Positions 2,779 to 27,690 of a DNA stretch of 28,107 bases are shown here, piece after piece. Made by a program: the position numbers and the translations under genes. Where the stretch lies: positions 1 through 28,107 of the IMG/VR virus record IMGVR_UViG_3300037264_006520. One strand, written 5' to 3'. Under the pieces are notes generated by a model. It was not told the origin of the DNA. It saw nothing but the letters and a program-made list of their open reading frames with translations, and did no database searches. The DNA comes from a virus. Lineage: Duplodnaviria > Caudoviricetes. Within the stretch, counting starts at the first letter, position 1; each line of letters opens with the position of its first letter.

Positions 2779-2802
2779 AACAATAATAAGAATAAAAATA
2801 AA
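2779..2802 (+). promoter_or_regulatory. (AAN)8 leader tract of portal gene
   Basis: AAC AAT AAT AAG AAT AAA AAT AAA, followed by ACAGGCGT-ATG. Confidence 0.6.
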
Positions 2803-2810
2803 ACAGGCGT

Positions 2811-4550
2811 ATGTTCAAAAGTTTATTCGGCAAACCAAAGCTGTCGGAATTGGGCGACACATTTTCCAGCAATCTAAAAAATAAAATATACGCACAAAGC
2901 GCATATCCGGTTGCTAATTCTTCTAAATATGGATTTTTAGATAAAAGCAGAGATTTTTTAGCAAACATTTTGCAAAGAAAAGTCAATAATTCGGGCGTGA
3001 CACAAGGATTGCCATTATGGTCGACCGGCGATAAGCCAGTACTTTATAGTTCAGAGGCTGTTCTTTATTACTTAGAATGCGCGCCAGTTGCTACGGCTGT
3101 TGATAAGATAGCCATGGATGTTGCATCTATTCCCCCTCTAATTTACAGCAAAAAACACAAAGAATTTATTTGCGAACATCCGGTTTTAGAATTATTGCAA
3201 TCACCAAATACAGACATAACTTTTACGGAATTCATGCATTCGCTGTCAAGCTGGTATTTAATTTCTGGTAATAGTTATATAAATGGAACTGGTTATATTG
3301 AAAATCCACCCAAAGAAATTCGCGTTTACCCTTCACAATCAACCTCGATTATTGTTGGTATCGATGGTTATGCGCAAAATTATACTGCTCGTTTACTTGG
3401 ATTAGTTGATACATTCAATCGCACAGAAGTTATAAATTACGGGCGTTCAAGATTTAGATTTTATGCCAATGAATTTAAAGAGCTTTATCATATTAGGACG
3501 TTCAATCCGCAAGTTAGTTCTAATATGGCTTATGGTTTGTCACCGCTTAACGCTATTTATTATGAAATGCGGCAATATATAGAGGCGGCAAAATATAATT
3601 TAAGCGTATTGGAAAGGCAGTCTAAATTAAGCGGTATATTCAAAACCAAGACGGTATTAATGCCAGAAATGCGTAAGCGTTTAGAAACCCAAATGCAAAA
3701 TATGTATAGTGGCTCCACAAACGCGGGGCGAAATATGCTTATCGATGGTACGGATATGGAGTTTCAAGATTTGATGGTGGGTGGTCGCGATATGGATTAT
3801 GTGAAAATGCGCGAACAAGTTACCAAGTCGATTTACAAGGCTTTAAAAATTCCTTTGCCATTGGTCAGCGAAGAATCGATGACATATTCAAATTTGGAAG
3901 GCGCTAAAATCTTATATTACAAGCAGTCCGTATTGCCTTTGCGTAGACGAATAGACGAAGAATTAACCAACTTTTTGATGCCGCGTTATGATAATAAAGA
4001 CAATGATTTGATTATAACATTTAACGAGCATGACGTTCCGGCTATGGAATCGGATCGTAATGAGCAGGCAAAAATCAAAAAGGATATTGGAATATTTACA
4101 CCGAATGAACTTAGAAAATTGTTTGCTTATACAGAATTGGAAGGCGGTCAAAATTTATATGGAAAATTTGGCGATACGCCTATTGCTGTTGATACGGATG
4201 ATAAATTTCATACTGGCGAAGAATTAGATAAGCCAGAACCGTCAAGAGATAACGAAATGCCACATAAACCGGCGGATGATGGAGTCGACACTTATGTCGG
4301 TCAAGGGCAAAGTGATCTTGAAAACGATATCGATTTAGAACCTGATTTAAGCGATGATGGAAAAAAATCATTATATAAAAAATCCATGGAAGACTATGAT
4401 GAATATGATCTATTGAGCATCGAAGATAAAAAAAAGATTCGTGAAAAATATATCGGATTTCTTCGTAAGCAAAAATATAGAAACAATAAGCCAAAATATT
4501 CAGAAGATGAAATTAACGACATGGCGTTGACAATTTATGGCCCTAACTAG
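2811..4550 (+). CDS. Portal protein, HK97 family, with acidic C-terminal extension
   Basis: HPVLELLQSPN, LISGNSY, YGLSPL, YSGSTNAG, TYSNLE, FTPNELR motifs; position after terL. Confidence 0.95.
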   Translation: MFKSLFGKPKLSELGDTFSSNLKNKIYAQSAYPVANSSKYGFLDKSRDFLANILQRKVNNSGVTQGLPLWSTGDKPVLYSSEAVLYYLECAPVATAVDKIAMDVASIPPLIYSKKHKEFICEHPVLELLQSPNTDITFTEFMHSLSSWYLISGNSYINGTGYIENPPKEIRVYPSQSTSIIVGIDGYAQNYTARLLGLVDTFNRTEVINYGRSRFRFYANEFKELYHIRTFNPQVSSNMAYGLSPLNAIYYEMRQYIEAAKYNLSVLERQSKLSGIFKTKTVLMPEMRKRLETQMQNMYSGSTNAGRNMLIDGTDMEFQDLMVGGRDMDYVKMREQVTKSIYKALKIPLPLVSEESMTYSNLEGAKILYYKQSVLPLRRRIDEELTNFLMPRYDNKDNDLIITFNEHDVPAMESDRNEQAKIKKDIGIFTPNELRKLFAYTELEGGQNLYGKFGDTPIAVDTDDKFHTGEELDKPEPSRDNEMPHKPADDGVDTYVGQGQSDLENDIDLEPDLSDDGKKSLYKKSMEDYDEYDLLSIEDKKKIREKYIGFLRKQKYRNNKPKYSEDEINDMALTIYGPN

Positions 4551-5451
4551 GAAACAAAGCAAAGAAAGAAAAGATAGACTTAAACGCGCAGCGATAGGTT
4601 TAGCGTTAAAGTTAAAATATGAAAAAACGCTTAAAAGCCGGATGGCAAGCTATTTTGATAAGATTATAAAAGACTTTGAAAGACAATATAAACTTCATGG
4701 AATCGCAATTAATCCCATAGAATACCAGGAAAAATTAGAAAACTATCTTATAGAGCATCATATTAAAGTTGCGGGAAAATTTTCACATGCATCAAGAGAT
4801 CAGCTCGGTCTTCCTATAAACAATTCAGAAATTCAAAAAAAATTAGACGCTAATATAAAGCATTATGCTATTCAAAGGGCGCATTCGATTAGTCATGATA
4901 TGACCGAAACAACAAGGGATAATATTGATAAATCGCTTAGGATGGCTTTTGCTGATGCAACAAAGCAAGAATTAGAAATCAGTCATATAGTTATAGCAGG
5001 ATTAGCTGCCGATAGACTAAGAGCGAAATTTCATGGAAGAGAAACCACTATTGCAATCACCGAAACAAATACAGCGGCAGAAAAAGGTAAAAAAATTGAA
5101 CATAATACATTGCTTGATTTAGATGCTAAATTTAAAATCGAAAGCGAAGATAGAGATACGGACGATGAAGAATGGGAGATAGAAGAAGGCGAAGAAAGAG
5201 GGTGGGAAGAAGCTGGTATTATAGCCTTTTCAGTTTTAGCATCCGGCGCTAAAAAAATGTGGACTGCTGTTTTAGATGATCATACTAGGGAATGGCACGC
5301 AGAAGCTGATGGGCAGGTTGTAGATGCAGATGAACCTTTCATTGTAAATAATGAAGAGCTTATGGAGCCAATGGACGATAGCCTAGGCGCATCTGATGAT
5401 AATATTTTAAATTGTCGGTGCAGTTCGGACATTACTTACGAAGAAGCATAG
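4537..5451 (+). CDS. Minor head protein, Mu gpF / SPP1 gp7-like
   Basis: IAITET, KMWTAVLDDHTREWHAEADGQ and terminal NCRC motifs; overlaps the portal stop. Confidence 0.9.
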   Translation: MALTRKQSKERKDRLKRAAIGLALKLKYEKTLKSRMASYFDKIIKDFERQYKLHGIAINPIEYQEKLENYLIEHHIKVAGKFSHASRDQLGLPINNSEIQKKLDANIKHYAIQRAHSISHDMTETTRDNIDKSLRMAFADATKQELEISHIVIAGLAADRLRAKFHGRETTIAITETNTAAEKGKKIEHNTLLDLDAKFKIESEDRDTDDEEWEIEEGEERGWEEAGIIAFSVLASGAKKMWTAVLDDHTREWHAEADGQVVDADEPFIVNNEELMEPMDDSLGASDDNILNCRCSSDITYEEA

Positions 5452-5528
5452 ATTTTTAATATAGTAATTTTAAAAACATTTACATTAATCAATTGGTTGT
5501 GTTTAAATAACTTAAACATCCTTAACAT

Positions 5529-5543
5529 AATAACAACAAGAGG
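5529..5543 (+). promoter_or_regulatory. (AAN)4+AGG leader/RBS of protease gene
   Basis: AATAACAACAAGAGG 7 nt before ATG 5551. Confidence 0.65.
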
Positions 5544-5550
5544 ATTTTAT

Positions 5551-6714
5551 ATGCCCAGCTCGATAGAACATTCCGCTCGGATCAACGAACCGTCGAAATA
5601 TGAAAAAATTAGGCGAAAAAATGACGAATTTGGAACGGGCATACATGTAATTTATGGTGTGCTCAAAAATGATAATACCGAAGTACAGGCAATTCATTTT
5701 GATAAAACCAAATTTACTGCGGCAGAAGCTAAAAAATGGTTATCAGAGCATGATTATAAGCCAATTGAATTTGTAGCGGCTACTGAAAAATCCAACATTG
5801 TTGAGATTGAATATAAAAGCTTTTCTTTCAAAAGCGATTCTTTCGAAGAAAGTAAAGGAAATGATGGCAACTTTGGGATTATAAAAGGATATGCGTCAAC
5901 TTTTGGCAATATTGATCTAGGTGGTGATATTGTTGAACGTGGAGCTTTTGTTAAGTGCTTGGAAAAATATGCGCGAGAAGGGAAAAATATTCCAATGTAT
6001 TTCCAGCATAGCCATATGGATATCATTGGCGGATTTGATCCAAGAAAAACTTATGAAGACGAAAAGGGCTTGTATTTTGGCGAAGGTAAAATCAATCTTG
6101 ACGTTACGCGCGGCAGAGATGTTTATGCGCTTGCTAAACAAAAAGTTCTGTGTGAAATGTCAATTGGTTATATGGTCAATGACGCAGAATTTGAACCTTC
6201 GGAAGACGGATATATCAATAGAAGGCTCAAGGAAGTTGATGTAAAGGAAATTAGCGTTGTTGCCAACCCAATGAACCCATTGGCAAGAATGACAGACGTA
6301 AAAAACAAGCTAAAAAATATTGAAAATGAAGAAGTTGGAACTTTAGAAATGGTAACTTTACAAGATATTCAAGCAATTTGTAATAAAAGTCATTTGCCAA
6401 ACGATGAAAAAGCTTATCTTTTAAGAAGATTGCTTCATGATCAAGGCAGCATTTCAAAATCAGCATCAAAATTTATTTCAGAAAGATTTTTTGATGACGA
6501 AAACAATCACTTTGCTAAAGTTAATGAAAAGATAGAAGAAAAGATAGAAGAAAAGAAAGAAGAAATTGCCGTTGATCAAGAGAAAGTTAATGAAAAAAAT
6601 GATTCAAACGTCGAAAATGAATTGAAGAATCTTTTATTAGCTTGCAAAGAGGGGTTGAATAACGATAAAATTGTAGAAGAATTAGCAAAACTGCGTAAAG
6701 CAGTATCAAATTAA
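5551..6714 (+). CDS. HK97-family prohead protease with N-terminal extra domain and charged C-terminal tail
   Basis: GYASTFGNIDLGGDIVERGAF, MYFQH, MSIGY, EISVVANPMNPLA; start moved to ATG 5551 because of the AGAGG SD. Confidence 0.93.
   Translation: MPSSIEHSARINEPSKYEKIRRKNDEFGTGIHVIYGVLKNDNTEVQAIHFDKTKFTAAEAKKWLSEHDYKPIEFVAATEKSNIVEIEYKSFSFKSDSFEESKGNDGNFGIIKGYASTFGNIDLGGDIVERGAFVKCLEKYAREGKNIPMYFQHSHMDIIGGFDPRKTYEDEKGLYFGEGKINLDVTRGRDVYALAKQKVLCEMSIGYMVNDAEFEPSEDGYINRRLKEVDVKEISVVANPMNPLARMTDVKNKLKNIENEEVGTLEMVTLQDIQAICNKSHLPNDEKAYLLRRLLHDQGSISKSASKFISERFFDDENNHFAKVNEKIEEKIEEKKEEIAVDQEKVNEKNDSNVENELKNLLLACKEGLNNDKIVEELAKLRKAVSN
6526..6561 (+). repeat. 12-nt in-frame tandem repeat (EKIE-EKIE-EKKE)
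   Basis: GAAAAGATAGAA x2 plus GAAAAGAAAGAA. Confidence 0.7.
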
Positions 6715-6801
6715 CGGCTTTTGCCGTATCAAGAATTAACGGGCCTCCCCGTATCCAATCAAGCAGTGCCACTGCTGACCTAGCGATGACCATTTGTCAT
6801 C
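6714..6801 (+). promoter_or_regulatory. Four consecutive stem-loops in the protease-capsid intergenic region (putative structured RNA leader)
   Basis: ACGGC/GCCGT 6714-6727; ACGGG/CCCGT 6739-6752; AGCAGT/ACTGCT 6762-6776; GATGAC/GTCATC 6785-6801. Confidence 0.65.
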
Positions 6802-6816
6802 AAATAATAATCTTTT

Positions 6817-6842
6817 AATAACAATAATAATAACAAAAGAGG
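6817..6842 (+). promoter_or_regulatory. (AAN)7+AGAGG leader/RBS of major capsid gene
   Basis: AAT AAC AAT AAT AAT AAC AAA AGAGG, 5 nt before ATG 6848. Confidence 0.7.
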
Positions 6843-6847
6843 TCAAA

Positions 6848-8215
6848 ATGACAGAAGAAGTAAGAATTGTTACGCCGACTAATCCTACCGAAGGAATAGT
6901 TAAATGCGTAGCTGAAATTCGTTCTATGGTCGAAGATAAAAGCAGAACCCAAGGCGAATTGCAAACTAAAATTGACAAAATGGAAAAAGATTTGTCTTCC
7001 TATGAACAAAAAAACCAAGAGTTGTCCGGTAAATTGGCGCAACAGGTTAAAGAAGCAGAAGAACAAAAGAAAATTGTTGATGCCTTGGAGAGAAACGCAT
7101 CTAAAGGCAATACTGCAATTCAAACCAAAGATGGTGTTGAAATTTACAACCCGGAAATGGTTGATGCTTATGATAGATATTTCTGCGCTCGTGATGGCAG
7201 GTCTTTACTCGCCAATGATCCCATTGCAATGAAATATTATCATGGTCATGATTGCAAAATTCAGGCTCCAATCGTCCGCACTTTTGATAAGAAAGATGCT
7301 TCTTTATTCCACAGCACCAAAAATGTTCGCGAATTAGAGCATAAATATTTGCGTACTGATGTTAACGATTTTGGTGGGTTTTTGGTACCGCCAGAATTTA
7401 TGCCGACTTTGATCCGTCGTTTAACCGAAGTTTCACCGGTTAGGCAATATGCTTCAAGCAGAACTACTTATTCCAACGAGTTGGATGTGCCAGTACGTAA
7501 CGTACTCGTCACCGGTCAGTGGGGATATGAAGGCGCTACTAGCATCGCTAATGGTAGCTCGCAATATACCCGCCCCTCAATTCACATGAAAAGATTACAG
7601 GTAACTGTGCCCTTGACTATTGAAGAATTGATGGATTCCCCTTTTGACATGCAGGCCGAGGTTTCTAACGACGTGAACGAAGAGTTTGCGCGCTTGGAAG
7701 GACAAGGCTTTGTAACTGGTGATGACACTCTTCAGGTCGAAGGTTTGATGACCAATTCACAAATTGGTTATACGCCGACCGGTAAAGCAGCTGAATTGAC
7801 CGCCGATAGTTTGCTAACCATGTACGGCGCAATCAAATACCAATCTTATGGCAACCAAATGTACGATCGCACTTATATGTTCAATCGTCGTACTTGGATC
7901 AAAATTTTGCAATTGAAAGATGGTATTGGTCAATACATTTGGGCACAAGGCAATATTGAAAAAGGTATTCCAAATACTATTTTGGGAGCCAGCTATATTA
8001 TTGCTCCTGATATGCCAGATGTTGGCGCTGGAAACTATCCAGTTTTAATGGGAGACTTTAAAAAGGGTTATATGATCGTGGATCGTATGCTTATGTACAT
8101 GGTACGCGATGAAATGACTGTCCCAGGCTTTATTAAATATACATTCATTCGTAGATTAGGCGCAAAAGTAATTTTGCCAGAAGCCTTTAACAAACTAAAA
8201 GTTTCCGTGTCTTAA
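6848..8215 (+). CDS. Major capsid protein, HK97 fold, with N-terminal coiled-coil delta domain
   Basis: GGFLVPPEF, ELMDS..D, FARLEGQGFVTGD, LKDGIGQYIW, TILG, MPD, GDFKKGYMIVDR, RLGAKVILPEA; start at ATG 6848 after AGAGG. Confidence 0.95.
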   Translation: MTEEVRIVTPTNPTEGIVKCVAEIRSMVEDKSRTQGELQTKIDKMEKDLSSYEQKNQELSGKLAQQVKEAEEQKKIVDALERNASKGNTAIQTKDGVEIYNPEMVDAYDRYFCARDGRSLLANDPIAMKYYHGHDCKIQAPIVRTFDKKDASLFHSTKNVRELEHKYLRTDVNDFGGFLVPPEFMPTLIRRLTEVSPVRQYASSRTTYSNELDVPVRNVLVTGQWGYEGATSIANGSSQYTRPSIHMKRLQVTVPLTIEELMDSPFDMQAEVSNDVNEEFARLEGQGFVTGDDTLQVEGLMTNSQIGYTPTGKAAELTADSLLTMYGAIKYQSYGNQMYDRTYMFNRRTWIKILQLKDGIGQYIWAQGNIEKGIPNTILGASYIIAPDMPDVGAGNYPVLMGDFKKGYMIVDRMLMYMVRDEMTVPGFIKYTFIRRLGAKVILPEAFNKLKVSVS

Positions 8216-8244
8216 TTTTAAAAATATAAAGTTAAATAAATCTT

Positions 8245-8265
8245 AATAAAAATAATAATAAGAGG
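8245..8265 (+). promoter_or_regulatory. (AAN)6+AGG leader/RBS
   Basis: AATAAAAATAATAATAAGAGG before ATG 8274. Confidence 0.7.
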
Positions 8266-8273
8266 TTAATAAA

Positions 8274-8786
8274 ATGGCTCAAAGAGATTTACACAACATG
8301 GTGAAAAGCTTTGTTGCAATTCCTACCAGCACTATTTCTACCAACACCACGACTAATGGTGTTGCTATTGATACGCAGGGTTATGATAGTACTGAATTTT
8401 TCATAATCGCTGGTACGCTTGACGCAACTATCGTTTTTACTCCTTCAATTCAGGTGGCTGATGACGCCGGTTTTACCGTTAACGTTAATACCGTTGTCGA
8501 TCCTTTTTTAATCGGTACTACGGCTATTACTGATCCAGGTTCCCCTCCGGGGCCTAATCCGGCTTTTACTAACGCTAATGCCGGTTACGCAACTACTGCT
8601 ATCGCTGACGCGACGCTTAGCGGCGTAGCTTTGGATAGTAATAAAGTCGCGCGTATCGGTGTTTTAAACAAGCAAAGATATGTTAGATTGGTTGAGACTA
8701 GCACAGATAAAACAACCAGCGGCATTATTACCGCTCTTGCTGTTCTTAGCCATCCGCACATGCCTTCTACTCCGAAAGATAAATAA
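8274..8786 (+). CDS. Putative capsid decoration/cement protein
   Basis: Directly after the capsid gene with a strong RBS; beta-rich, AIDTQGY...IQVADD...KQRYVRL pattern resembling jelly-roll cement proteins. Confidence 0.6.
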   Translation: MAQRDLHNMVKSFVAIPTSTISTNTTTNGVAIDTQGYDSTEFFIIAGTLDATIVFTPSIQVADDAGFTVNVNTVVDPFLIGTTAITDPGSPPGPNPAFTNANAGYATTAIADATLSGVALDSNKVARIGVLNKQRYVRLVETSTDKTTSGIITALAVLSHPHMPSTPKDK

Positions 8787-8791
8787 TAATA

Positions 8792-9010
8792 ATGACAAGT
8801 TTAGTAAGAGATGAAGTTGGTGGTAATGATAGGACGAGAGTATTAATGCTTTCGTCCTATCAACTGCCAAATGGCGTGAGTTTAGAAAAAAATCGTTACT
8901 ATGAATTAGATTCAACAACGGCAAATTTTCTAAGACAAAATAAACTTGCCATGTCAGAAAAAAGGCATGTTTATGAAAACAAAATAATTAAAATTAAATA
9001 CGAGGAGTAA
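8792..9010 (+). CDS. Small head-region hypothetical protein
   Basis: 72-aa ORF tightly packed between head genes. Confidence 0.6.
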   Translation: MTSLVRDEVGGNDRTRVLMLSSYQLPNGVSLEKNRYYELDSTTANFLRQNKLAMSEKRHVYENKIIKIKYEE

Positions 9011-9013
9011 ATT

Positions 9014-9505
9014 ATGGCTGTTTTACCTATACCGCCAGCAAAGTGTGAAGTCTTAAATGGCTTCAAACAACCTGCTGATTCTACTAATACCGACCCCGCT
9101 TTTCCAGTTGGCAAAGATAATCAATTATTTTTCTATGGAACCATGGATGTTGGTGGCACTTTAATTACGGCAACCCGTTTTTTGAATGTGTTAAATTCTG
9201 TTAATCCATATTCGATTAGCGTAACTGCAAGCGCTGTTGCTATTTCCGGTAGAACGGCAATAGTTGGTGGAACTGGATTAGCATTGACGTTAGCGGCTCC
9301 GGAACCGGGTGCTTTATGCGACATGTGGCTTGCAAGCATATCGTCTGGCGCAGTTACTGTGAAAACTCCGGCTGGTGTCACTTTTGACGGCACTAACAAC
9401 ACGGCGACGTTCACAACTGGCGGTTTCGAATTGACCGTGGGTTACAGTTCAGCGACCCGTTGGCTAATTGTTTATAACAATGGCGTGACTTTTAGTACGA
9501 CATAG
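9014..9505 (+). CDS. Putative virion accessory protein (beta-rich)
   Basis: GAGGAG SD; Thr/Gly/Ala-rich 163 aa in the head module. Confidence 0.65.
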   Translation: MAVLPIPPAKCEVLNGFKQPADSTNTDPAFPVGKDNQLFFYGTMDVGGTLITATRFLNVLNSVNPYSISVTASAVAISGRTAIVGGTGLALTLAAPEPGALCDMWLASISSGAVTVKTPAGVTFDGTNNTATFTTGGFELTVGYSSATRWLIVYNNGVTFSTT

Positions 9506-9542
9506 TAAATATAAAACTATAAAAATTATAGCGTGAATTTGT

Positions 9543-11438
9543 ATGTCTAGTTTTATCGACAATTTTACAACGCCAGCAGATTATACTTACGATCCAGTTA
9601 AAATGGATATATCTGCTGGCATACTTTCGTTAAAAGAAGATTTAACGAATGTTTACGCGCGCTGGCATTTAAATGATGGAAGCGGGACTAACGTTGCGGA
9701 TAGTTCTGGGAATTCAAGAAATGGAACTACAGTAGGTTCACCATCTTGGGTGGCTGGAAAGCTTAATGGTGCTTTGCAATTGGATGGAACTACACAATAC
9801 GTTGATTGCGGTAATATTGCTAATTTTGAAAGGACGCAACCTTTTTCGGTACAAGCTTGGATTAATCCAAGTTCTGTGACTGGTACGTTAAGAAATATAA
9901 TTTCTAGGAAAAATCATTTATCTCCTTATGAAGGTTGGGACATCTCAATATCATTAGGTAAAATAGAATTTTATTTAATCAATAATTATGACACGAATAT
10001 CCAGATTTATGTAAATACAGTAAATAGTGTAAGCACTGGTAATTGGTATCATTTGGTTTTAACTTACGATGGAAGTTCGACAGCGGCAGGAGTTAAAATT
10101 TATTTACAAAGTGTCGACCAAGCCTTAACCATCAATTCTGATACTTTGAATGCAAGTGCGCTATCTTCAGCCGCTTGCAATATTGGCGCAATAAATAATG
10201 ATCCTACAATGGGTCTTTTTGCAGGAATAATTGATGAATTAAATATTTATAATCGTGTTTTAACACAAGATGAAATAACTTATTTGTACAATACCGGAAC
10301 TGGTAGGGAAAATTTTGTATATTATACAGATAAACCTAGATGCTATAAAACACTTGGTTATATAGATAATATAAAACAATATGTAAATTTTATCGAAACT
10401 TTGGGTGTTGGCAATCAAGGTTCTTGGGGATATCAATTATCTAGAGATGGCATAAATTGGCGATCATGGAACGGTTCTTCTTGGGATATAGCCGGTTATT
10501 CTGATTATAATACGGCAGCAGAAGTTGCCGCGAATATAGGATCATTTTACTTATATCCAAATTATACTTTACGTGTTAATTGTATTGCTCTTAGTGATGG
10601 AAAACAGGATTGCAAATTAGACACGATAGAAATTGATTACAATATAGATTTGCCACTTTCAAAAAATGATATTCCAACGATAGCTAATTTAGTTTGGGAT
10701 ATGTTACTTGCTGATCATAATACACCGAATACTTTTGGCGCTAAGAATCAGAAATTAATACCTTCAGAAACTATAAGCGATTACTACACGGATTTAACAC
10801 CGGTGACAAGCGCGATGGCGCTTGATTCTACCGTTGCAAAGGATGCCACTGTGGCAAAGGACGCCACTGTTGCGAAAGATGCTACAGTCGCAAAGGACAC
10901 GACGGTGGCTAAGGAAGCAACACTTTCCGCGCTTGCTTCTGTTGTAGCATTAGATGCCACGGTAGCCAAAGAAGCCACGTCGGTTTTAATTAAAGCCAAT
11001 ACGGACACAATACCCACAAAAGCCCTTGAAACTACGGCACAATCTATTAAAGCAAACACTGATACGATACCCGGCGTGAAGTCGCAAACTGATAAATTAC
11101 AATTTACAGGCACGAATGATGTGCAAGTGCGTATTAATGATTTGGGTGCATTAACCGCAACCTTCGTCGGCGCTTCTGTTTGGGACACTGTTGCTACTTC
11201 GCATGACATTCCTGATACGTTCGGTCATCTAGTGAATGAAATAGATATTTTGGGCAGCGATAATAATCGATATATAGACCAGTGTGTTTATTCAAACAAT
11301 AGCCTAACTTCTTGTCGGGTGCGGATTTATTCCAACCCAGCAAGCGTGGGCACAACTAGCGATGTGATAGCGACATTTTTAGTAACAGCGACGCAAACCA
11401 ACGGAAAAATGACTACTTTTAAGGAGGTACAGCAATGA
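9543..11438 (+). CDS. LamG/concanavalin A-like domain virion protein with repeat stalk
   Basis: RWHLNDGSGTNVADSSGN, GALQLDGT, FSVQAWI, WYHLVLTYDG, FAGIIDELNIYNRVLTQDEI; DATVAK repeats. Confidence 0.85.
   Translation: MSSFIDNFTTPADYTYDPVKMDISAGILSLKEDLTNVYARWHLNDGSGTNVADSSGNSRNGTTVGSPSWVAGKLNGALQLDGTTQYVDCGNIANFERTQPFSVQAWINPSSVTGTLRNIISRKNHLSPYEGWDISISLGKIEFYLINNYDTNIQIYVNTVNSVSTGNWYHLVLTYDGSSTAAGVKIYLQSVDQALTINSDTLNASALSSAACNIGAINNDPTMGLFAGIIDELNIYNRVLTQDEITYLYNTGTGRENFVYYTDKPRCYKTLGYIDNIKQYVNFIETLGVGNQGSWGYQLSRDGINWRSWNGSSWDIAGYSDYNTAAEVAANIGSFYLYPNYTLRVNCIALSDGKQDCKLDTIEIDYNIDLPLSKNDIPTIANLVWDMLLADHNTPNTFGAKNQKLIPSETISDYYTDLTPVTSAMALDSTVAKDATVAKDATVAKDATVAKDTTVAKEATLSALASVVALDATVAKEATSVLIKANTDTIPTKALETTAQSIKANTDTIPGVKSQTDKLQFTGTNDVQVRINDLGALTATFVGASVWDTVATSHDIPDTFGHLVNEIDILGSDNNRYIDQCVYSNNSLTSCRVRIYSNPASVGTTSDVIATFLVTATQTNGKMTTFKEVQQ
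10824..10913 (+). repeat. Five 18-nt in-frame repeats encoding D(A/S/T)TVAK
   Basis: GATTCTACCGTTGCAAAG / GATGCCACTGTGGCAAAG / GACGCCACTGTTGCGAAA / GATGCTACAGTCGCAAAG / GACACGACGGTGGCTAAG. Confidence 0.9.
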
Positions 11439-11533
11439 GTAGCCTAGGAATTGTGACATGTGGTCTTATCGAAATAGATACATTCTATTACGTAGTGCCT
11501 TTAATCGCAGAATTGCAAAAAATAACTTTTTAG
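11435..11533 (+). CDS. Unannotated 32-aa ORF (MSSLGIVTCGLIEIDTFYYVVPLIAELQKITF)
   Basis: AAGGAGGT SD at 11421-11428 and ATGA overlap with the LamG gene stop. Confidence 0.6.
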   Translation: MSSLGIVTCGLIEIDTFYYVVPLIAELQKITF

Positions 11534-11541
11534 GTTCAGTA

Positions 11542-11916
11542 ATGCAAATAAAGCGCGGCAATAAAGCAGATTTACAATTTATAGTTAAAGACGCCAACGG
11601 GGTTGTTTTAACAAATTTGTCTTCAGCTACGAATATTCAATTTGTATTAAAAAAGAATAAAATCGATCTTGATGAAGATGCGGTTGTTTTAAAAAATTTA
11701 ACAGACGGAATAACAATTGATACGCCGTTGATTGGTAACTGTACAGTTACTTTAACTTCGTTAGATATGAATATACCGGCGCAAAATTATTTTTGGGCTT
11801 TAAAAATTACATTTAGCTCGACAAGCATTCAAGAAGTAAATATTAAAAACCCTAATGTAAGAGATATTCTTTATATTGATTATATTTCGGTGGTAGAGAA
11901 CATAAGCCATGTCTGA
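11542..11916 (+). CDS. Beta-sandwich virion protein (BppU N-terminal-like)
   Basis: MQIKRGNK...LQFIVKDANG..NLS...GNCTVTLTSLD...YFWALKIT; AGGT before ATG 11542; the N-terminus from 11458 looks non-coding. Confidence 0.6.
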   Translation: MQIKRGNKADLQFIVKDANGVVLTNLSSATNIQFVLKKNKIDLDEDAVVLKNLTDGITIDTPLIGNCTVTLTSLDMNIPAQNYFWALKITFSSTSIQEVNIKNPNVRDILYIDYISVVENISHV

Positions 11917-12613: not shown

Positions 12614-12637
12614 AACTTTAGCAGCGCATGGTGATAT

Positions 12638-13027
12638 ATGCCGCGATATTTAACCAAGAAAAAAAGGCTTGAAAAAATAGAAATAGGATCGCTTAACAGT
12701 GGGATAACAATTTTTTTAAGGGAATTAATTTCGCCAGCAGGCAATGATTATAAATATCGAGAAGTTTTTACGCCAAAAAGAAATGTATGGGCATTTATAG
12801 ATACTGTAGAAGGCATCACGGTATTTGATGATGTAAATACAGAGCGCGTAATTACCCATGATTTTTATATATACTATATTAAGAATATAACATTTCAAAA
12901 CTGGCTTGAATATAAAGGCAATAGATACAGAATTTATCACGTAGAAAATTACGGATTAGAAAATAAATTTTACTTATTGCGAACGACATTAACTGGCGAT
13001 AAAGATAAACAGGTTAGCTTGGCATAA
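12638..13027 (+). CDS. Head closure / head-tail adaptor (SPP1 gp16-like)
   Basis: IGSLNSGITI, VWAFI, THDFYI, YKGNRYRI; position after the connector. Confidence 0.8.
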   Translation: MPRYLTKKKRLEKIEIGSLNSGITIFLRELISPAGNDYKYREVFTPKRNVWAFIDTVEGITVFDDVNTERVITHDFYIYYIKNITFQNWLEYKGNRYRIYHVENYGLENKFYLLRTTLTGDKDKQVSLA

Positions 13028-13029
13028 TT

Positions 13030-13539: not shown

Positions 13540-13548
13540 TTGCTATTA

Positions 13549-13566
13549 AATAATAACAATAATAAA
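13549..13566 (+). promoter_or_regulatory. (AAN)6 leader without SD
   Basis: AATAATAACAATAATAAA then A-ATG. Confidence 0.6.
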
Positions 13567-13567
13567 A

Positions 13568-14656
13568 ATGAAAATAGCAGACATAGTTTATCAATTATTA
13601 GCAGTTTTTCCGCGCTATACGGATTTTTTTAGCGATAATATAAGCATTACTTCGCTAATTCGGTCTGGAGATACTATTACCGCAACTACGGGGTTAGCGC
13701 ATAATTTAATTGACGGGGATCGTGTTTATATTAGCGGGGCTTTGACTTCGATATCGATTAGTTCTTTGACTAGAATTGGAAATGTAGCAAAAGGAATAAC
13801 AGCGAGCAATCATGATTTAACAACTGGTTATCAAACACAAGTACAAATAAGCGGAGCAGATCAAACGGAATATAATGGCGTTCATAGATTTATAAAAGAG
13901 GATAATCGTAGAACATTTTATTATGAAGTTTTAGGAAGCCCAGCGACGCCGGCAACAGGAAGCCCAAAATTAATACAAAATATAAAATCTGGCTATAATG
14001 GATGGCATATTATTACCGTAATAGATGATACAAATTTTTCATTTACAACGACGGCACAAATTGAAAGTCCGGCTTTAGGCAATATAACATGCAAAAAGAA
14101 TTTTAGAATTTCTGGAGCTATAAGTATTGAAAGGGCCATTGAAAGCTATACAAAACAACCCTTGGGAAGTTTTTGGGCCTTTGTTGTTAAGGGATCAAGC
14201 ATAGCCAGCAAAGATAGATATACTTTTAATGACAGCACTAAAACAATTGCTCCTGGTCAGGATTTTAGATCTAAAATTATCGAACCATTTAGTGTTTTTG
14301 TATTTGCCCCAACTTCTGAATCATTGTCGGGAGTTGAGCAGCGCGATCAAATGGAAGATGTTGCGGTAGCGCTTTTTAAAAGTATTTTAAGATTATATTT
14401 GCCAAGCAGTTTTACTGATACGACAAATTACCAAATTGCTTTCGGAAATCACGGAATTTATAGCTATGATTATGCCTATTACATTCATGAGTTTACGTTT
14501 GAAAATCAATATGACTTAACTTATGATGATACTGTAGACACAGACGATAGCGTGGCATTTAGAGATTTAAGATTACAAATGGGTAGCTATTTTGATCCAA
14601 CTTCTGGTATTGTAATTAATACCAATGTGGATTTAGATAATATCCCATTAACATAA
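13568..14656 (+). CDS. Putative tail terminator/neck protein with inserted beta-domains
   Basis: Position between the gp10-like and sheath genes; C-terminal VAFRD motif; two internal H.L..G...ISGA....YNG domains. Confidence 0.6.
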   Translation: MKIADIVYQLLAVFPRYTDFFSDNISITSLIRSGDTITATTGLAHNLIDGDRVYISGALTSISISSLTRIGNVAKGITASNHDLTTGYQTQVQISGADQTEYNGVHRFIKEDNRRTFYYEVLGSPATPATGSPKLIQNIKSGYNGWHIITVIDDTNFSFTTTAQIESPALGNITCKKNFRISGAISIERAIESYTKQPLGSFWAFVVKGSSIASKDRYTFNDSTKTIAPGQDFRSKIIEPFSVFVFAPTSESLSGVEQRDQMEDVAVALFKSILRLYLPSSFTDTTNYQIAFGNHGIYSYDYAYYIHEFTFENQYDLTYDDTVDTDDSVAFRDLRLQMGSYFDPTSGIVINTNVDLDNIPLT

Positions 14657-14666
14657 TAAAATTCCC

Positions 14667-14689
14667 AATAATAAAAATAATAAAGAGGG
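14667..14689 (+). promoter_or_regulatory. (AAN)6+GAGGG leader/RBS of sheath gene
   Basis: AATAATAAAAATAATAAAGAGGG. Confidence 0.7.
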
Positions 14690-14696
14690 ATTAAAT

Positions 14697-16583: not shown

Positions 16584-16598
16584 AAATAAAATAAATTA

Positions 16599-16630
16599 AA
16601 TATGGGATATTTCCTTTAAAATCCCACATT
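16599..16630 (+). promoter_or_regulatory. Stem-loop between sheath and tube genes
   Basis: AAT-A-TGGGAT ... ATCCCA-C-ATT. Confidence 0.45.
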
Positions 16631-16639
16631 ATTTTACCT

Positions 16640-16660
16640 AATAAAAATAATAATAAGAGG
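16640..16660 (+). promoter_or_regulatory. (AAN)6+AGG leader/RBS of tube gene
   Basis: AATAAAAATAATAATAAGAGG, identical to 8245-8265. Confidence 0.7.
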
Positions 16661-16667
16661 TATTAAA

Positions 16668-17063: not shown

Positions 17064-17075
17064 TAGAGGTTCAAA

Positions 17076-17701: not shown

Positions 17702-17705
17702 TTAA

Positions 17706-19034
17706 ATGTCTCTCTATAATGTATTAATAAAATTTCTAGGCGTAGATGCTGTTAGTCCGCAGATCAAAAAAATCACCAGTTCAATGGAAACCCTTCAAAA
17801 ACGACTCGCCAAAGGAAGCAGTCATATTAAAGATTTTAGCCGTGCAATGTTAAAAATTTCCGCTGTGCTTGGTGGCGTTGGCATTTATGCTTTAAAAAAT
17901 GCTGATGATTTTGAAATTATGGAAAATCAATTGCGCGCGACAACTGGCTCTTTAGTCGAAGCTAAACAGATCATGGAAAGCATAACTAAATTTTCTTTAA
18001 AAGAACCATTTGCATTTGAAGAAGTATCTGGAGCTGCAAAAGCCTTATCTGCCGCAAGAGTACCTATCAAAGAAATAAATAAATATTTAGATATGTTAGG
18101 AAATATTTCCGCTGGTTCAGGTCAAAAACTTGAATTGTTAACAGAGCAATTGCTTAAAATGAAGGCTGGGCAGCGGCAATATACGATACTAACTCAGATG
18201 GAAAGAGCCGGAATACCACTTAAGACTGAACTATATAAGCTTGCTAAATTGCATGGATATTCTGAACAAGCGTTTGATAAAGCGGCTAAAAAGGGAAAAA
18301 TTAGTTTTGCACTTATACTCGAGGGTTATGCGGAACTTGAAAAAAGATATGCCGGCGCTATGGAGCGGCAAGCGGCAACTATTGAAGGATCGATGAAAAG
18401 GGCTCACAACATGCTAAGGGTTTTTGCAAAAGATTTAGGCGATTCATTGGCTGAGGTTTACGGCATAAAAGAGGGTTTAAAAGGCGCGCTTGATATCGTC
18501 GCTGAATTTGAACCCATTTTTAAAAAATTTTTAAATACAAATCCAGAAATGGTTAAATTAATAAGCAATAGTGTTATTTTTTTAGGCGTTCTTGGCTTGA
18601 TAGGTTATGCGTGCTGGTATATTGAGCGGGGCATAGTTGGCATTAAAATTGCTTTTCTTGCTTTGCGTGGTTTGGCATTAGTGATTTTAGCTAATCCTTT
18701 AGTATTTGCGGCGATAGCGGTATATGCCTTGACGGAAGCTTTTGAAAAATTGTCCGATTTGATTAAAGGAGGCGGACTAGATTGGAGCGGGATAGCTGAA
18801 GGAATTGGCAACATGTTTAAGCATCCTGAGGCCATGTCTTTTGGGGCATTTTTCCCTAATAAACAAGGAGAAGCGTCAATAAACAAAGATGTGGCGACAA
18901 CAAATACTACTCAACAAAAAGTCGGTGTTGATATTACCTTGAAGGGGCTTGTTAATGCTATATCAGCTCTAACGACAACAGGCGCGGCTAATACTTCGGT
19001 AACAAGCAATGGATCAAATAACGCGCCAATATAA
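17706..19034 (+). CDS. Tape measure protein (short)
   Basis: Helical; FSLKEPFAFEEV, LGNISAGSG, GIP, YAGAMERQAATIEG; hydrophobic segments; follows the chaperones. Confidence 0.88.
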   Translation: MSLYNVLIKFLGVDAVSPQIKKITSSMETLQKRLAKGSSHIKDFSRAMLKISAVLGGVGIYALKNADDFEIMENQLRATTGSLVEAKQIMESITKFSLKEPFAFEEVSGAAKALSAARVPIKEINKYLDMLGNISAGSGQKLELLTEQLLKMKAGQRQYTILTQMERAGIPLKTELYKLAKLHGYSEQAFDKAAKKGKISFALILEGYAELEKRYAGAMERQAATIEGSMKRAHNMLRVFAKDLGDSLAEVYGIKEGLKGALDIVAEFEPIFKKFLNTNPEMVKLISNSVIFLGVLGLIGYACWYIERGIVGIKIAFLALRGLALVILANPLVFAAIAVYALTEAFEKLSDLIKGGGLDWSGIAEGIGNMFKHPEAMSFGAFFPNKQGEASINKDVATTNTTQQKVGVDITLKGLVNAISALTTTGAANTSVTSNGSNNAPI

Positions 19035-20250: not shown

Positions 20251-21449
20251 ATAACGTAATGACATTAGAGGCAAATGGTGTAACGTACGATGGTTTTACA
20301 AGTGCCAGAACTTCTGTTTGCATGGAAGATTTAAGCGGGGAATTTTCTTTTTCTTCGGTTAATATAAAAAACATTTTCACACCGATAAAAATTGGCGATA
20401 AATGCAAAATTTATGTAAATGGAAAATCAGTTATTAATGGTTATGTGGAAAAAATTGATGCTGATTATGATGTCAAAAGCCACAATATTTTTATTAGTGG
20501 AAGAGATAAGACCTGTGATGTAATTGATAGTAGCGTTGGAGATAAAATAACTTTTTCTGGTGGAATATCTTTAGTCGAAATGACTAAACAAACATTAGCA
20601 AAAATGAACATTACCGGGATAAATGTAAGCACTACCGTGTCGATGGACCCGTTTAAAAGTAGCGAATTGGAAAATTCAGAAGTATGCGAAACAGTTCATA
20701 CTTTTTTATTAAAATACGCAAAAAAAAGACAAGTATTAATGACTACGGATGGAAGCGGAAATATAATTTTTGTTCGCTCATCTAAAAATACAATTAAAAC
20801 AGTTTTAACGTCTAGTTATAATTCAAAAAGTACAATTTTAAATGCGGCTGTAAAATTTGATGATACAAAAAGATTTTATAAATATATTCTCAATTCACAA
20901 GTTAATCCGTCGTCTCTGGGTGACGATCCGTATGAATTGATTAAGGCTGAAAAAGCATATAATGTTGCGGCTGTCGCATATGATACAGATATAAGACCAT
21001 CTAGAACGTATAATTTTCAGGCTGAAACCCCGCATAAAGAAACAGCCACATCGCCTTTGGTAACAAAATGGAGCGACCTTAAGGCTTATTCATCTTCAGC
21101 GATAAAAGCGGCTCCAGACGCCGATAAAAGAACTATATGGGAATCCAATATAAGAAGAGCAAGGGCATTGACTTATACATGTTCTGTATATGGTTTTAGC
21201 CCAATAGATGATCCGAACATTATTTGGAGACCAAATTTGTTGGTAAATGTTATTGATGAAATTTTAAATTTTACTAGCCAGCTTCTTATTAGGTCAGTGG
21301 TTTATGATTATAGTTTAGATGAAGGCTCTAAAACTACATTGGAGCTTGTAGATAAACAAACTTTTGATCTCGAATTAATAGTTGGCATTAAGGAAAAGAA
21401 GACTAAAAGTGGTGCGGTTGAGGGTTATGATTTTAATGGGGTCAAATAA
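20247..21449 (+). CDS. Baseplate hub, Mu gpP (gp44)-like
   Basis: VINGYVE, SGRDKTCDVIDSS, TTDGSGNI, IWRPNLLVNV, GSKTTLEL. Confidence 0.9.
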   Translation: MNNVMTLEANGVTYDGFTSARTSVCMEDLSGEFSFSSVNIKNIFTPIKIGDKCKIYVNGKSVINGYVEKIDADYDVKSHNIFISGRDKTCDVIDSSVGDKITFSGGISLVEMTKQTLAKMNITGINVSTTVSMDPFKSSELENSEVCETVHTFLLKYAKKRQVLMTTDGSGNIIFVRSSKNTIKTVLTSSYNSKSTILNAAVKFDDTKRFYKYILNSQVNPSSLGDDPYELIKAEKAYNVAAVAYDTDIRPSRTYNFQAETPHKETATSPLVTKWSDLKAYSSSAIKAAPDADKRTIWESNIRRARALTYTCSVYGFSPIDDPNIIWRPNLLVNVIDEILNFTSQLLIRSVVYDYSLDEGSKTTLELVDKQTFDLELIVGIKEKKTKSGAVEGYDFNGVK

Positions 21450-21463
21450 TAATAAATATTGTT

Positions 21464-23520: not shown

Positions 23521-23979
23521 ATGAAAGACATTTTATTAAATAGCGATAATGGTTATTTGGATTTTAGCATTGAAAACGGCGATTTTAAAATGACCGGCGG
23601 TTTTGAAACTGCTATAATCATGTCAATATTGTGCGAGGCGCGCGCATTAGCAAGCGAAGTTCCAACCGCTGAGCTAAGACGTGGCTGGTGGGGTAATTTA
23701 GTCGGTGATTTTGCCAATTATGAAATAGGTTCTAAAATTTGGTTGTTATATCAATCTAAAAGAACGCCCGACACTTTGGCCTTAATAAAAACCTATGCAA
23801 TAAATGCCTTGCAATGGATGATAAATGACGGCTATATTGATAAAATAGATGCTGATTCAAGTTTTATCGAAGATGGAATTTTTTTAATTATAAAATTGTA
23901 TCGTTCTCAAAATTTAGTCGACTCTGTTGGCTTCAAAATTTGGGAACAAACGAATTTGATAAATATAACAACTGCCTGA
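23521..23979 (+). CDS. Baseplate wedge protein, Mu gp46-like
   Basis: ETAIIMSIL, RRGWWG, IGSKIWLL, ALQWMINDG. Confidence 0.92.
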   Translation: MKDILLNSDNGYLDFSIENGDFKMTGGFETAIIMSILCEARALASEVPTAELRRGWWGNLVGDFANYEIGSKIWLLYQSKRTPDTLALIKTYAINALQWMINDGYIDKIDADSSFIEDGIFLIIKLYRSQNLVDSVGFKIWEQTNLINITTA

Positions 23980-23980
23980 T

Positions 23981-24002
23981 AATAATAACAATAAAATGGT
24001 GG
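23981..24002 (+). promoter_or_regulatory. (AAN)5 leader plus TGGTGG RBS of baseplate J gene
   Basis: AATAATAACAATAAA-ATGGTGG before GTG 24007. Confidence 0.55.
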
Positions 24003-24006
24003 TTTC

Positions 24007-25347: not shown

Positions 25348-25349
25348 AT

Positions 25350-25976
25350 ATGAAAAAAGATTTCACACCAAATACGATAGAAGAAAATACACAGTTTTTT
25401 GCTGGTATGCTGCCGAGCGGACAGCCGTTTGATGCTAAAAATATTTACAATTCTAATTTAAGAAAATTGTTAAGGGCTTTTTCCACGGAAGGATTTAGAG
25501 TGCAAAATAAAATTTACGAATTATCAGAAGAATTTGATATTACCAAAACTGTAAATTTGATTGAAGCATGGGAAAGTTTGCTAGGAATACCTGATCAATG
25601 TTTTGATACTTTGCCTATATATTTAACGATTGAGCAAAGACGCCTTCAAGTATTATGCAAATTTGCCAGAATGAATTTAACTACCGAAAAAAACTGGATA
25701 GATTTAGCAAAGTTGTTTGATATTGATATACAGATCATACATCCTAGCGATAACAGTTCTTTTGATTATACGTTTGATTTTCACATGTACGATGATCGTA
25801 AAAATCAGCGTTTTACGATGATTATAAAATTTTTGCACATGGCTGCGCCTGAAAATGTTTTTAATTGCACATTTGATTTTACTTTTGATGACACCGTGCC
25901 ATTTATTATGTGCTTATTTGATCAAGCGCGACCGGCAAATGTGCATATTGTTTATGAATATGAATTAACTCCTTAA
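25350..25976 (+). CDS. Mu gp48-like (DUF2313/YmfQ) baseplate protein
   Basis: LPSG, LIEAWESLLGIPDQC, TIEQRR, CLFDQARPAN. Confidence 0.9.
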   Translation: MKKDFTPNTIEENTQFFAGMLPSGQPFDAKNIYNSNLRKLLRAFSTEGFRVQNKIYELSEEFDITKTVNLIEAWESLLGIPDQCFDTLPIYLTIEQRRLQVLCKFARMNLTTEKNWIDLAKLFDIDIQIIHPSDNSSFDYTFDFHMYDDRKNQRFTMIIKFLHMAAPENVFNCTFDFTFDDTVPFIMCLFDQARPANVHIVYEYELTP

Positions 25977-25995
25977 AAATAAAAATAATAAGAGG
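25975..25995 (+). promoter_or_regulatory. (AAN)6+AGG leader/RBS of tail fibre gene
   Basis: AAAAATAAAAATAATAAGAGG. Confidence 0.7.
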
Positions 25996-26003
25996 AAATT
26001 AAG

Positions 26004-26999
26004 ATGCGTGATATTCCGAATAAGTCAACGGGTGATAAATTTTATCCCTATGAGTGTAATAGTATTACAGCAGAAGAAAAAAACTTGATCACTAGTGCTG
26101 GTATAACATTATCAGAACTAGATTTACAACAACTCGCTAAAGCAATAACAATGTATTCTGGTTCTGGTGATTTTTATACTGATAGTGGAATACCAAATAC
26201 TTATGTTTTATCCGTTATCGGCAGTAAATTAGCTCCTTTTGCTTATGTTAATGGATTGCGAGTTAAATTCCGTCCTACAAATACTTGCACCGCCTCATCT
26301 ACGGTTAATGTATGTGGTTTAGGAGTTAGACCAATTGTAGAAATTGATGGTTCAAGCGCGACACAGGAAGGTGATATTATTTCAGGTCAAGTTACCGAAT
26401 TGGTTTATAACTCGTCAAGCAATAAATTTGAGTTGCAAAGTAAAACACAATCTCATGGGTTTTTAACCGGTGAAATTAAATTTACTATAAATTCTACTCC
26501 GCCTCCAGGTTGGATTTTTTATGTTAATTATCCGCCAAACACAACGACTACAATTGGCGACGCAAGTTCTGGTGCAACAATAAGAGCTAATGATGATTGT
26601 GAACAATTATTTAAAATGATTTGGAATAACACTACATTTCCTAGTGGAAATACTATTTGTCCAATAGATACTGCCCCAATAGGCGCATCTGCTGATGCAG
26701 ATTGGTTGGCGCATAAACGAATTAATTTACCATATATTACCGCACATGCTTTTGGTGCAGCGCAAGGTCATAGGCTTCCCGGAGCGCGCGAGGGAAATAG
26801 GTCGGTGAATTTAACCGAGAAGCAATTGGCAGAACATCACCATGAATATGATCAAACTTTTGGTGATTTTGGTTCACATGGAGATGTGGCAGGATCTTCG
26901 GCTCTTTATGTTCTTCGAAATACCTCAAAAGTAGGTGAAAGCGATCCTATTAGTGTTATACAAGAGACCGTTTATTTTAACGTAATGATGAAATTATAA
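26004..26999 (+). CDS. Tail fibre protein with collar domain
   Basis: DLQQLAKAI, GLRVKFRPTNTCT, collar GEIKF...PPGWI, LTEKQLAEHHH tip motif; follows gp48. Confidence 0.82.
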   Translation: MRDIPNKSTGDKFYPYECNSITAEEKNLITSAGITLSELDLQQLAKAITMYSGSGDFYTDSGIPNTYVLSVIGSKLAPFAYVNGLRVKFRPTNTCTASSTVNVCGLGVRPIVEIDGSSATQEGDIISGQVTELVYNSSSNKFELQSKTQSHGFLTGEIKFTINSTPPPGWIFYVNYPPNTTTTIGDASSGATIRANDDCEQLFKMIWNNTTFPSGNTICPIDTAPIGASADADWLAHKRINLPYITAHAFGAAQGHRLPGAREGNRSVNLTEKQLAEHHHEYDQTFGDFGSHGDVAGSSALYVLRNTSKVGESDPISVIQETVYFNVMMKL

Positions 27000-27009
27000 G
27001 AGGTTAAAA

Positions 27010-27654
27010 ATGGGTAAATTTAAACATACACCAAATGATACTATTTATATTAATAATACTTCTTTTCCATTGTCATTTTTTTTGACAGTTGAACCAGCCT
27101 ATGCTTTGCCTGCCGGAATGATAACGCAATATTACGAACAAACTGTGATTCACAATATTTCAGATGGTGTCACAGGATATAATCTTACTATCCCTTGGAC
27201 CGATGGGGATGGATATATAGCAAATGAAGCGGTTTATATTGCCGCCTATGCAAGTTATCTGAATAGTCTGATCACTTTATCTCAGGCTAAAACGACAAGA
27301 ATTGGGCAAATGCTAGAATATGCATCAGGAATAAAAGTTGGGCATGTGATTGTAAATACTGAGGAGTATTTTTCAGATAGTATCTTTTCATCAAAATTGG
27401 TTAATGAAGATTTAAGCTACACAAGAGTTGGTTTGCCGGTTGGTTATTATGTGAATGATAAAGATTATGTGCAAATACCAATAGGCACGCTTGGAGATTT
27501 GGAAGATATTATCGATAGAATCGTGGAATTGCATTATTTAACCGATATCAATGCCGATGTGCATAGAGCGGCTATCAATGCGCTTTTAACCGTGACAGAT
27601 GTGCAGAATTACGATTTTATTACTGGCGGCGGTTGGCAAACTGTTCCTTATTAA
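27010..27654 (+). CDS. Putative tail fibre assembly chaperone (DUF4376-like)
   Basis: Follows the fibre; TLSQAKTTRI...AAINALLTVTDVQNYD..GW. Confidence 0.6.
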   Translation: MGKFKHTPNDTIYINNTSFPLSFFLTVEPAYALPAGMITQYYEQTVIHNISDGVTGYNLTIPWTDGDGYIANEAVYIAAYASYLNSLITLSQAKTTRIGQMLEYASGIKVGHVIVNTEEYFSDSIFSSKLVNEDLSYTRVGLPVGYYVNDKDYVQIPIGTLGDLEDIIDRIVELHYLTDINADVHRAAINALLTVTDVQNYDFITGGGWQTVPY

Positions 27655-27668
27655 TAAAAATTTTACCC

Positions 27669-27690
27669 AATAATAACAATAATAAGAGGG
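27669..27690 (+). promoter_or_regulatory. (AAN)6+AGGG leader/RBS
   Basis: AATAATAACAATAATAAGAGGG. Confidence 0.7.

Follow-up and report, generated by a model that had tools for sequence, protein, structure and literature searches.

Phased AAN tracts as predicted hairpin loops before virion genes of a tailed phage: candidate Hfq-type leaders

The tailed-phage record IMGVR_UViG_3300037264_006520, analysed here over its whole length of 28,107 nucleotides (nt) and called the window below, carries phased runs of AAN triplets in the leaders of ten virion genes. On folding, each of these tracts forms the predicted loop of a short hairpin, the stem of which spans the Shine-Dalgarno (SD) site or the start region. 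The window is a whole virus record, a linear contig of 36% G+C with an estimated completeness of about 54%. PHROG matches give a gene set for a head of HK97 type and a contractile tail like that of Mu. The names portal, protease, capsid, sheath and baseplate wedge (J) derive from these matches, and the names decoration, terminator, tube and fibre from position or weak matches.

Triplet tracts and hairpins at virion gene starts

An initial annotation had listed twelve AAN runs as leaders of structural genes, and all twelve were found where it placed them apart from small corrections. The run given as 8792 is present and lies at 8782-8793, while the run at 13549 has six triplets as described, reading as seven only when the A and T of the ATG are counted. 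Ten of the leaders hold as members of the set. The other two runs are tandem stop codons: 8782..8793 (plus strand) consists of TAA stops in tandem where two coupled genes meet, and 21445..21456 (plus strand) is the stop codon of the upstream hub gene followed by a tandem TAA; neither has a closing stem. As reported, seven runs lead into GAGG and the third position varies (T 43, A 12, C 8 and G 6 of the 69 triplets in the twelve runs).

The annotation had also called for a count of runs of at least five triplets against shuffled sequence, and this gave a strong excess in leaders. All nine such runs in the window lie on the plus strand and within leaders just before genes, compared with a mean of 0.95 (maximum 5) in 200 whole-window dinucleotide shuffles. 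For runs of at least six triplets, eight were observed against a mean of 0.14 (maximum 3) in the same shuffles, and the eight within 35 start windows compare with a mean of 0.09 (maximum 2) in 2000 per-leader shuffles. Runs of at least four triplets were no more frequent window-wide than expected by chance (15 against a mean of 7.6, maximum 17); the protease leader, with four triplets continuing into AGG, is counted among the ten retained. The tracts do occupy most of the sizeable gaps of the structural module, being found at 10 of 11 genes with an intergenic gap of at least 27 nt. The LamG gene (9543) is the sole large-gap gene of the module without one, and structural genes with gaps shorter than 27 nt, which presumably are coupled in translation, carry no tracts.

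The tracts lie between -32 and -2 relative to the start codon, and the commonest length is six triplets. Over the 11 large-gap leaders the triplet phase score was 31.0, against 10.6 ± 2.0 (maximum 20) in 20,000 composition-matched shuffles. When an (AAT)n array was allowed to decay in simulation with 38% change per site, the value observed at the third position, a run of six survived in 0.3-1.1% of trials. A neutral microsatellite should decay evenly at all three positions and have no bias of gene, strand or flank; here triplet phase and biases of strand, gene position and flank are all seen, in line with the earlier statement that the runs are not a simple microsatellite. Run X2 shows a single change within one of the tracts, 8247 T>C, which affects a third position; since it occurs on one contig at depth 2 it may be an error.

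Pyrimidines make up 78% of the six bases 5' of the tracts, and these bases pair with the SD or the start region to form a stem which the initial annotation had overlooked. With fixed flanks of 14 nt, stems of 4-7 bp (-1.1 to -5.6 kcal/mol) close in all ten tract leaders, as compared with 5 of 20 other genes of the window (Fisher p 2e-4). Loops measure 16-21 nt in eight leaders, 25 nt at gene 13568 and 31 nt at the portal gene. Cognate arms pair better than swapped arms (p 0.002 as duplex, p 0.0015 as hairpin), and the native 5' flank pairs better than a shuffled one (p 0.0007). The predicted unpaired probability at -30 to -9 of the leaders is 0.60-0.91.

All ten leaders are on the plus strand, and their stems differ in predicted probability when folded in 50 nt of context. 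The value is high for six of them. In the baseplate wedge (J) leader (23970..24004, 0.89) AACUGCC/GGUGGUU closes a 21-nt loop with (AAN)5, and in the tube leader (16635..16662, 0.84) UACCU/AGGUA closes a loop of exactly 18 nt that consists of (AAN)6. The prohead protease leader (5518..5545, 0.83) has AUCCUU/GAGGAU around 16 nt with (AAN)4, and the leader of 26004, a probable fibre gene (25970..25996, 0.71), has UCCUU/GAGGA around 17 nt with (AAN)6. The sheath leader (14663..14690, 0.67) pairs UCCC/GGGA around 20 nt with (AAN)6, and the major capsid leader (6811..6840, 0.66) pairs UCUUUU/AAAAGA around 18 nt, with (AAN)7 at 6817-6837.

The remaining four stems are weak in context. The leader of 13568, probably the tail terminator gene (13541..13579, 0.33), forms UGCUAUU/AAUAGCA around 25 nt with (AAN)6, has its AUG inside the loop and lacks an SD. 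In the leader of 8274, which follows the capsid gene and probably encodes the decoration protein (8239..8267, 0.07), AAUCUU/GAGGUU encloses 17 nt with (AAN)6. The portal leader (2770..2808, 0.06) combines (AAN)8 at 2779-2802 in a 31-nt loop with the stem GCCU/AGGC and a weak SD. Finally, the leader of 27695 (27664..27692, 0.05) has UACCC/GGGUG around 19 nt with (AAN)6 and competing pairings; no Pfam family matched the product of this gene.

Distribution in relatives, host genomes and unrelated phages

Scans with P0004, the sheath or J found no additional close relatives; P0002-P0004 have capsid identities of 62-79%. In L009, the capsid C-terminus of which is 91% identical to that of the window, the decoration gene also follows an (AAN)6 tract, which differs in its third positions and lies within a G-U-rich stem of nine pairs. 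More distant relatives (39-65% capsid identity) have at most three triplets and no tract in 42 of 42 orthologous leaders, 19 of which form a comparable stem. Since L009 keeps the tract and distant relatives are without it, the tract was gained within the clade of the window or lost elsewhere. Two relatives have features of their own. In L002, which lacks tracts, a different structured leader of about 90 nt is repeated before the portal and capsid genes (L002:1921-2033 and L002:9858-9994), with two shared hairpins and a third predicted in one copy, and an inverted block of small genes lies between the head morphogenesis and protease genes. A distant relative, L018, carries three tandem tail sheath genes (L018:8526-13504).

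Bacterial leaders were sampled for comparison. A strict motif had one match each in 5 of 401 genomes of the phylum of G002, against four matches in the window; a looser motif gave 53 matches in 42 of 251 genomes of the class of G002, compared with roughly 60 (counted by eye) when the motif was reversed. Both samples come from that one phylum. In the family of G380 (51 genomes; Pasteurellaceae-like, as inferred from an HP1-type prophage) there were 28 matches against 9 reversed. Sixteen of these precede a gene, which is a prophage sheath or fibre gene in six cases; other genes behind the motif are hfq, udp, yebC, mepK, an ompW-like gene and transporters. One bacterial hfq leader (L235) matches a similar motif, with hfq itself confirmed in G016 only. 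The majority of the sampled host genomes have no match, and the motif is not the ordinary leader style of these samples.

Among viruses, a first broad scan yielded an estimated 3000 or so stretches with one match, and among 120 loci sampled from about 3 of its 64 parts there was none with as many as four leader tracts. With a stricter scan 44 loci were retrieved; 37 of them have a leader tract, about half being from one HP1-like prophage group. The set of tracts in HP1-like phages is smaller than that of the window: in HP1, F108 and Pmp6, (AAN)4-5 stands before the sheath gene as well as ahead of an in-frame ATG located within the scaffold gene, and the fibre gene of HP1 follows (AAN)6 in a stem of nine pairs. 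Higher-GC HP1-like phages (Aeromonas, Cronobacter, Vibrio, Salinivibrio, Salmonella) lack tracts at the five orthologous leaders checked. The site in scaffold gene O, (AAN)4-6 plus GAGG and an in-frame ATG near codon 196-203 (L200:14381 in HP1, L201:7116, L202:7131, L193:12371), is probably an internal start for a C-terminal scaffolding protein. A hairpin between the tube and holin genes of F108 (L201:12596-12650), also present in L202, reaches about -19 kcal/mol with its flanks and has a loop of exactly 18 nt made of (AAN)6.

A scan with CCY(AAH)5AARRGR retrieved 57 loci, four of them with three or more leader tracts. We followed up three of these four (G687, G688, G689) and the two-tract record G690. 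By protein names, the proviruses G687 and G688 and the contig G689 are of Aeromonas and G690 is of Moritella viscosa. Elements analogous to those of the window occur in Aeromonas, Moritella, Haemophilus and Pasteurella phages. The Aeromonas and Moritella prophages have lambda-like tail proteins, and their capsids share 22-23% identity with that of the window (G687, G688 and G690 compared). Their tracts precede the terS, portal, protease, capsid, probable tube and chaperone, tape measure, tail tip and fibre genes. Runs of at least five triplets fall in leaders in 6 of 7 cases (G687), 9 of 13 (G688), 4 of 6 (G689) and 2 of 3 (G690), and the coding strand carries all of them. No tracts stand before the primase, endonuclease and lysozyme genes of these records; early genes are under-sampled because the records are only 18-40% complete.

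For the stem test in this group, sites selected by the pattern and record G689 were left out. Of the 18 unselected leaders 14 close a stem (shuffled flank, p 0.013), and among 15 unselected structural leaders 7 show loop lengths of 17-19 nt, against a null mean of 2.0 (maximum 6 of 400). Stems of portal orthologues differ on both sides (UCCC/GGGA, GUCC/GGAC and AUCC/GGAU), the last of these, from Moritella, enclosing (AAN)12 in a 37-nt loop. The same holds for fibre orthologues (UUCC/GGAA and AACC/GGUU), and the tail-tip stem CUCC/GGAG encloses two different 18-nt loops. A TATAAATA/ATAAATAC motif sits upstream of the portal hairpin in G687, G688 and G690, which places these hairpins within the probable mRNA; the TATAAATA type resembles the T4 late promoter. 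TATAAATA or ATAAATAC also stands before many genes of the Aeromonas and Moritella proviruses (L293, L294, L295, L296, L298, L299), a pattern like that of T4-type late promoters in a temperate phage. An extra (AAN)6 hairpin with a 20-nt loop lies between the protease and capsid genes of G690 (L298, about 9010-9060), with no adjoining start codon.

Hfq as candidate reader, and the alternatives

The distal face of Hfq has six triplet sites forming a circular site of 18 nt (PMC5575007), and the motif preferred by Escherichia coli Hfq is AAN (PMC3936774; PMC4152361). A distal-face site at the ribosome-binding site (RBS), defined from these three papers as four to six consecutive AAN or ARN triplets, should be single-stranded and inside the ribosome-binding region; the window leaders carry such runs, and their single-strandedness in that region is predicted. 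Distal-face binding at the RBS represses hfq (PMC6348989) and amiE (PMC6422490; PMC9037510), and positions 5526-5543 of the protease leader match the amiE6ARN oligonucleotide at 16 of 18 bases (PMC6422490). Because the distal face binds 18 nt in a circle, Hfq is a likely reader, and judging from sequence we lean toward it as the protein that reads the loops.

The initial annotation had placed the tract genes under a single RNA-binding protein. A reader of six-fold symmetry with 3 nt per subunit is supported by the phase, the six-triplet mode, the ring-sized loops, the occurrence in unrelated prophages of Gammaproteobacteria, the hfq leader and the amiE6ARN identity. The annotation's proposed coupling to Crc and nutrient state finds no support here, and the model below would not need Crc, which to our knowledge is largely confined to Pseudomonadales.

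We tentatively propose, at a confidence that stays below even, that host Hfq represses the virion genes through these elements. Each tract would be the loop of a short mRNA hairpin where a virion gene starts translation on its own, and a Hfq hexamer would wrap each (AAN)6 loop of about 18 bases round its distal face. Wrapping would bring the loop ends together and thereby stabilise the anti-SD/SD stem, so that an otherwise weak stem is held shut over the SD or start region and ribosomes are excluded. Release might follow once Hfq is titrated, either by abundant late mRNA (the window by itself has ten sites) or by an A-rich competitor RNA. Leaky late transcripts would thus be silenced and a threshold set for assembly, and genes without gaps would follow through translational coupling. 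A wider version, which we consider possible but doubtful, is that unrelated phages converged on such an Hfq-ring hairpin at every independent virion start, one hexamer fitting (AAN)6 and two fitting (AAN)12. Late mRNA would then act as an Hfq sponge and the chaperone as an assembly switch free of small RNA (sRNA), the sponge both flipping the switch and disarming host sRNA control.

Several observations weigh against repression by Hfq. The hairpin was noticed post hoc, a longer loop was permitted for the portal gene in the comparison across leaders, and the stems must be rated marginal because four of ten have in-context probabilities of 0.05-0.33 (0.66-0.89 in the other six). With swapped arms the result is borderline when the seven GAGG leaders are taken by themselves (p 0.049) and not significant for the 18 unselected Aeromonas and Moritella leaders (p 0.063). 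The absence of tracts from all 42 orthologous leaders of relatives also counts here. Elsewhere, only 5 of 25 distinct leaders with a single tract and SD have a stem of -1 kcal/mol or better. The model also presupposes that the host of the window encodes a Gram-negative-type, AAN-reading Hfq. Furthermore, T2 needs Hfq for optimal replication (10.64898/2026.06.19.733364), P1vir likewise grows better when Hfq is present, and in P1 the AAN clusters were not associated with under-induction (10.64898/2025.12.28.696737).

Some of these points suit a different role, in which the tract is a positive enhancer or standby site for the ribosome and S1, the stem tunes output and Hfq binding is incidental. 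The tracts stand on genes that need new initiation, including those for the most abundant virion proteins, and the unstructured A/U-rich stretch 5' of the SD expected of an S1-type enhancer is predicted. At 13568 the tract may serve initiation because the leader lacks an SD. A plain enhancer also fits the stemless lone tracts of unrelated phages, among them one of Firmicutes type by appearance, in which the gene behind the tract probably encodes the capsid, judging by its position and size. In addition, relatives carry U/A-rich leaders at the same places, and ACA triplets raise translation in Salmonella (PMC3879156). An enhancer does not, however, predict the strict AAN phase, the six-triplet mode, loops near 18 nt, the double loop with (AAN)12 or the match of each anti-SD arm to its SD, and we consider this explanation rather unlikely. 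Slightly less probable still is that Hfq reads the loop but activates, either by straining or melting the stem and exposing the SD or by protecting the mRNA, in which case free Hfq would be required for virion synthesis. The sequence evidence is the same as for repression, the stems are marginal (about -1 to -6 kcal/mol), and the T2 requirement mentioned above would agree. On the other hand, the tracts lie inside the ribosome footprint, where the cited distal-face cases repress (PMC6348989, PMC6422490), and circular binding (PMC5575007) would join the two ends and favour closure. Repression is more likely than activation.

A ring protein encoded by the phage itself seems improbable as the reader. 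With a record only about 54% complete, a six-membered Sm-like protein could lie in the missing part. The other candidate is open reading frame (ORF) 2399 (2399..2722, plus strand), an orphan basic tail tube paralogue that bears on this explanation only; its fold matches tail tubes and Hcp, and it is not found between terL and portal in the tract-less L002, L003, L006 and L014. The Hfq family PF17209 was, however, found in none of nine virus records (0/4 and 0/5), mostly incomplete, the sole complete record being also without tracts, and we know of no RNA binding by tube folds. Occurrence of the element in phages with unrelated virion genes and before host genes including hfq points to a host factor. 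We give very little weight to neutral (AAT)n slippage, tandem stops in AT-rich spacers or DNA promoter elements as the origin of the runs. It is true that 43 of 69 triplets are AAT, that two runs of four are tandem stops and that the feature is lineage-restricted. Against this, the decay model fails, TAA is in the frame of the upstream gene in only 3 of 10 retained tracts (from coordinates), and biases of strand and position and the flank complementarity are not accounted for; the tandem-stop and slippage models were rejected for all but two runs. As for promoters, promoter-like sites in 1-18000 occur at chance (76 against 69 ± 9), and in three records the portal hairpin has the TATAAATA/ATAAATAC motif upstream of it.

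Genome context and relation to known systems

ORF 2399, located between terL and portal, shares 35% identity with the tail tube of the same phage and is about 20 residues shorter, with an isoelectric point of 9.2 against 5.0 for the tube and a G+C content of 28%. Its predicted model resembles Mu tube and Hcp chains, with no match at E 0.001 or better, and its distribution was followed by word-index search alone. A role as loop reader is speculative; the protein could be a non-polymerising ring, a cap or a decoy for tube-sensing defences such as DSR2, complexes of which appear low among its fold matches. Elsewhere in the window, 267-623 encodes a HicB-like antitoxin with no HicA within the window, and ORF 652 provided no lead. 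A possible programmed frameshift lies in 17520-17700, where a T-rich run close to the end of the tail chaperone gene is followed by a hairpin (17538-17562) and an open stretch that reaches the tape measure gene.

Rfam 15 gave no matches in the window at or above the gathering threshold, i.e. no catalogued RNA family. A sediment metagenome run contains all sampled words of the window and may be its source; no RNA run is listed as containing them. As to the host, the genome scan gave distant capsids only (29-34%), and HicB homologues were scattered. Cultured phages reach at most 33% identity in the capsid and 36% in pieces of the sheath.

A ring protein that reads phased triplets near an RBS has a precedent in TRAP of Bacillus, which wraps (NAG)11. 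TRAP is an 11-mer gated by tryptophan, its repeat and spacing differ, and its site is not a hairpin loop. Closer in sequence is Pseudomonas Hfq/Crc at amiE6ARN, where an 18-nt A-rich triplet tract overlaps or abuts the SD (PMC6422490; PMC9037510) and many mRNAs are under one reader; in the window, the tract is a predicted loop closed by an anti-SD stem, the targets are phage virion genes, and neither Crc nor an RNA like CrcZ was found, with no test aimed at either. Repression by E. coli Hfq without sRNA (hfq, mutS, cirA, IS10; PMC6348989) likewise uses a distal-face ARN/AAN site at the ribosome-binding region, but those are single genes with shorter repeats and no operon-wide ring-sized hairpins. 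The ACA and A/U-rich enhancers share A-rich triplets just 5' of the SD on strongly expressed genes (PMC3879156); the enhancer ACAs need no fixed position, whereas phase, length and flank pairing are constrained in the window.

The window sites may work like the known distal-face RBS sites; what is new here is the closed ring-sized loop repeated across an operon. No description of AAN-loop, SD-closing hairpins on phage structural genes was found in open-licence literature, subscription journals being outside the search, and a supplementary P1 motif table could bear on novelty.

Among DNA phages, T2 and P1 are affected by Hfq according to recent preprints, which give no direct sites. The leaders described here offer a precise, repeated cis-element with a geometric rationale, copies of which occur in culturable Aeromonas and Haemophilus phages. 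If the proposal is true, it would add a translational layer to late-gene control and explain why optimal Hfq sites are kept on the most abundant mRNAs of the phage. It would also provide synthetic biology with a compact Hfq-gated ribosome-binding part.

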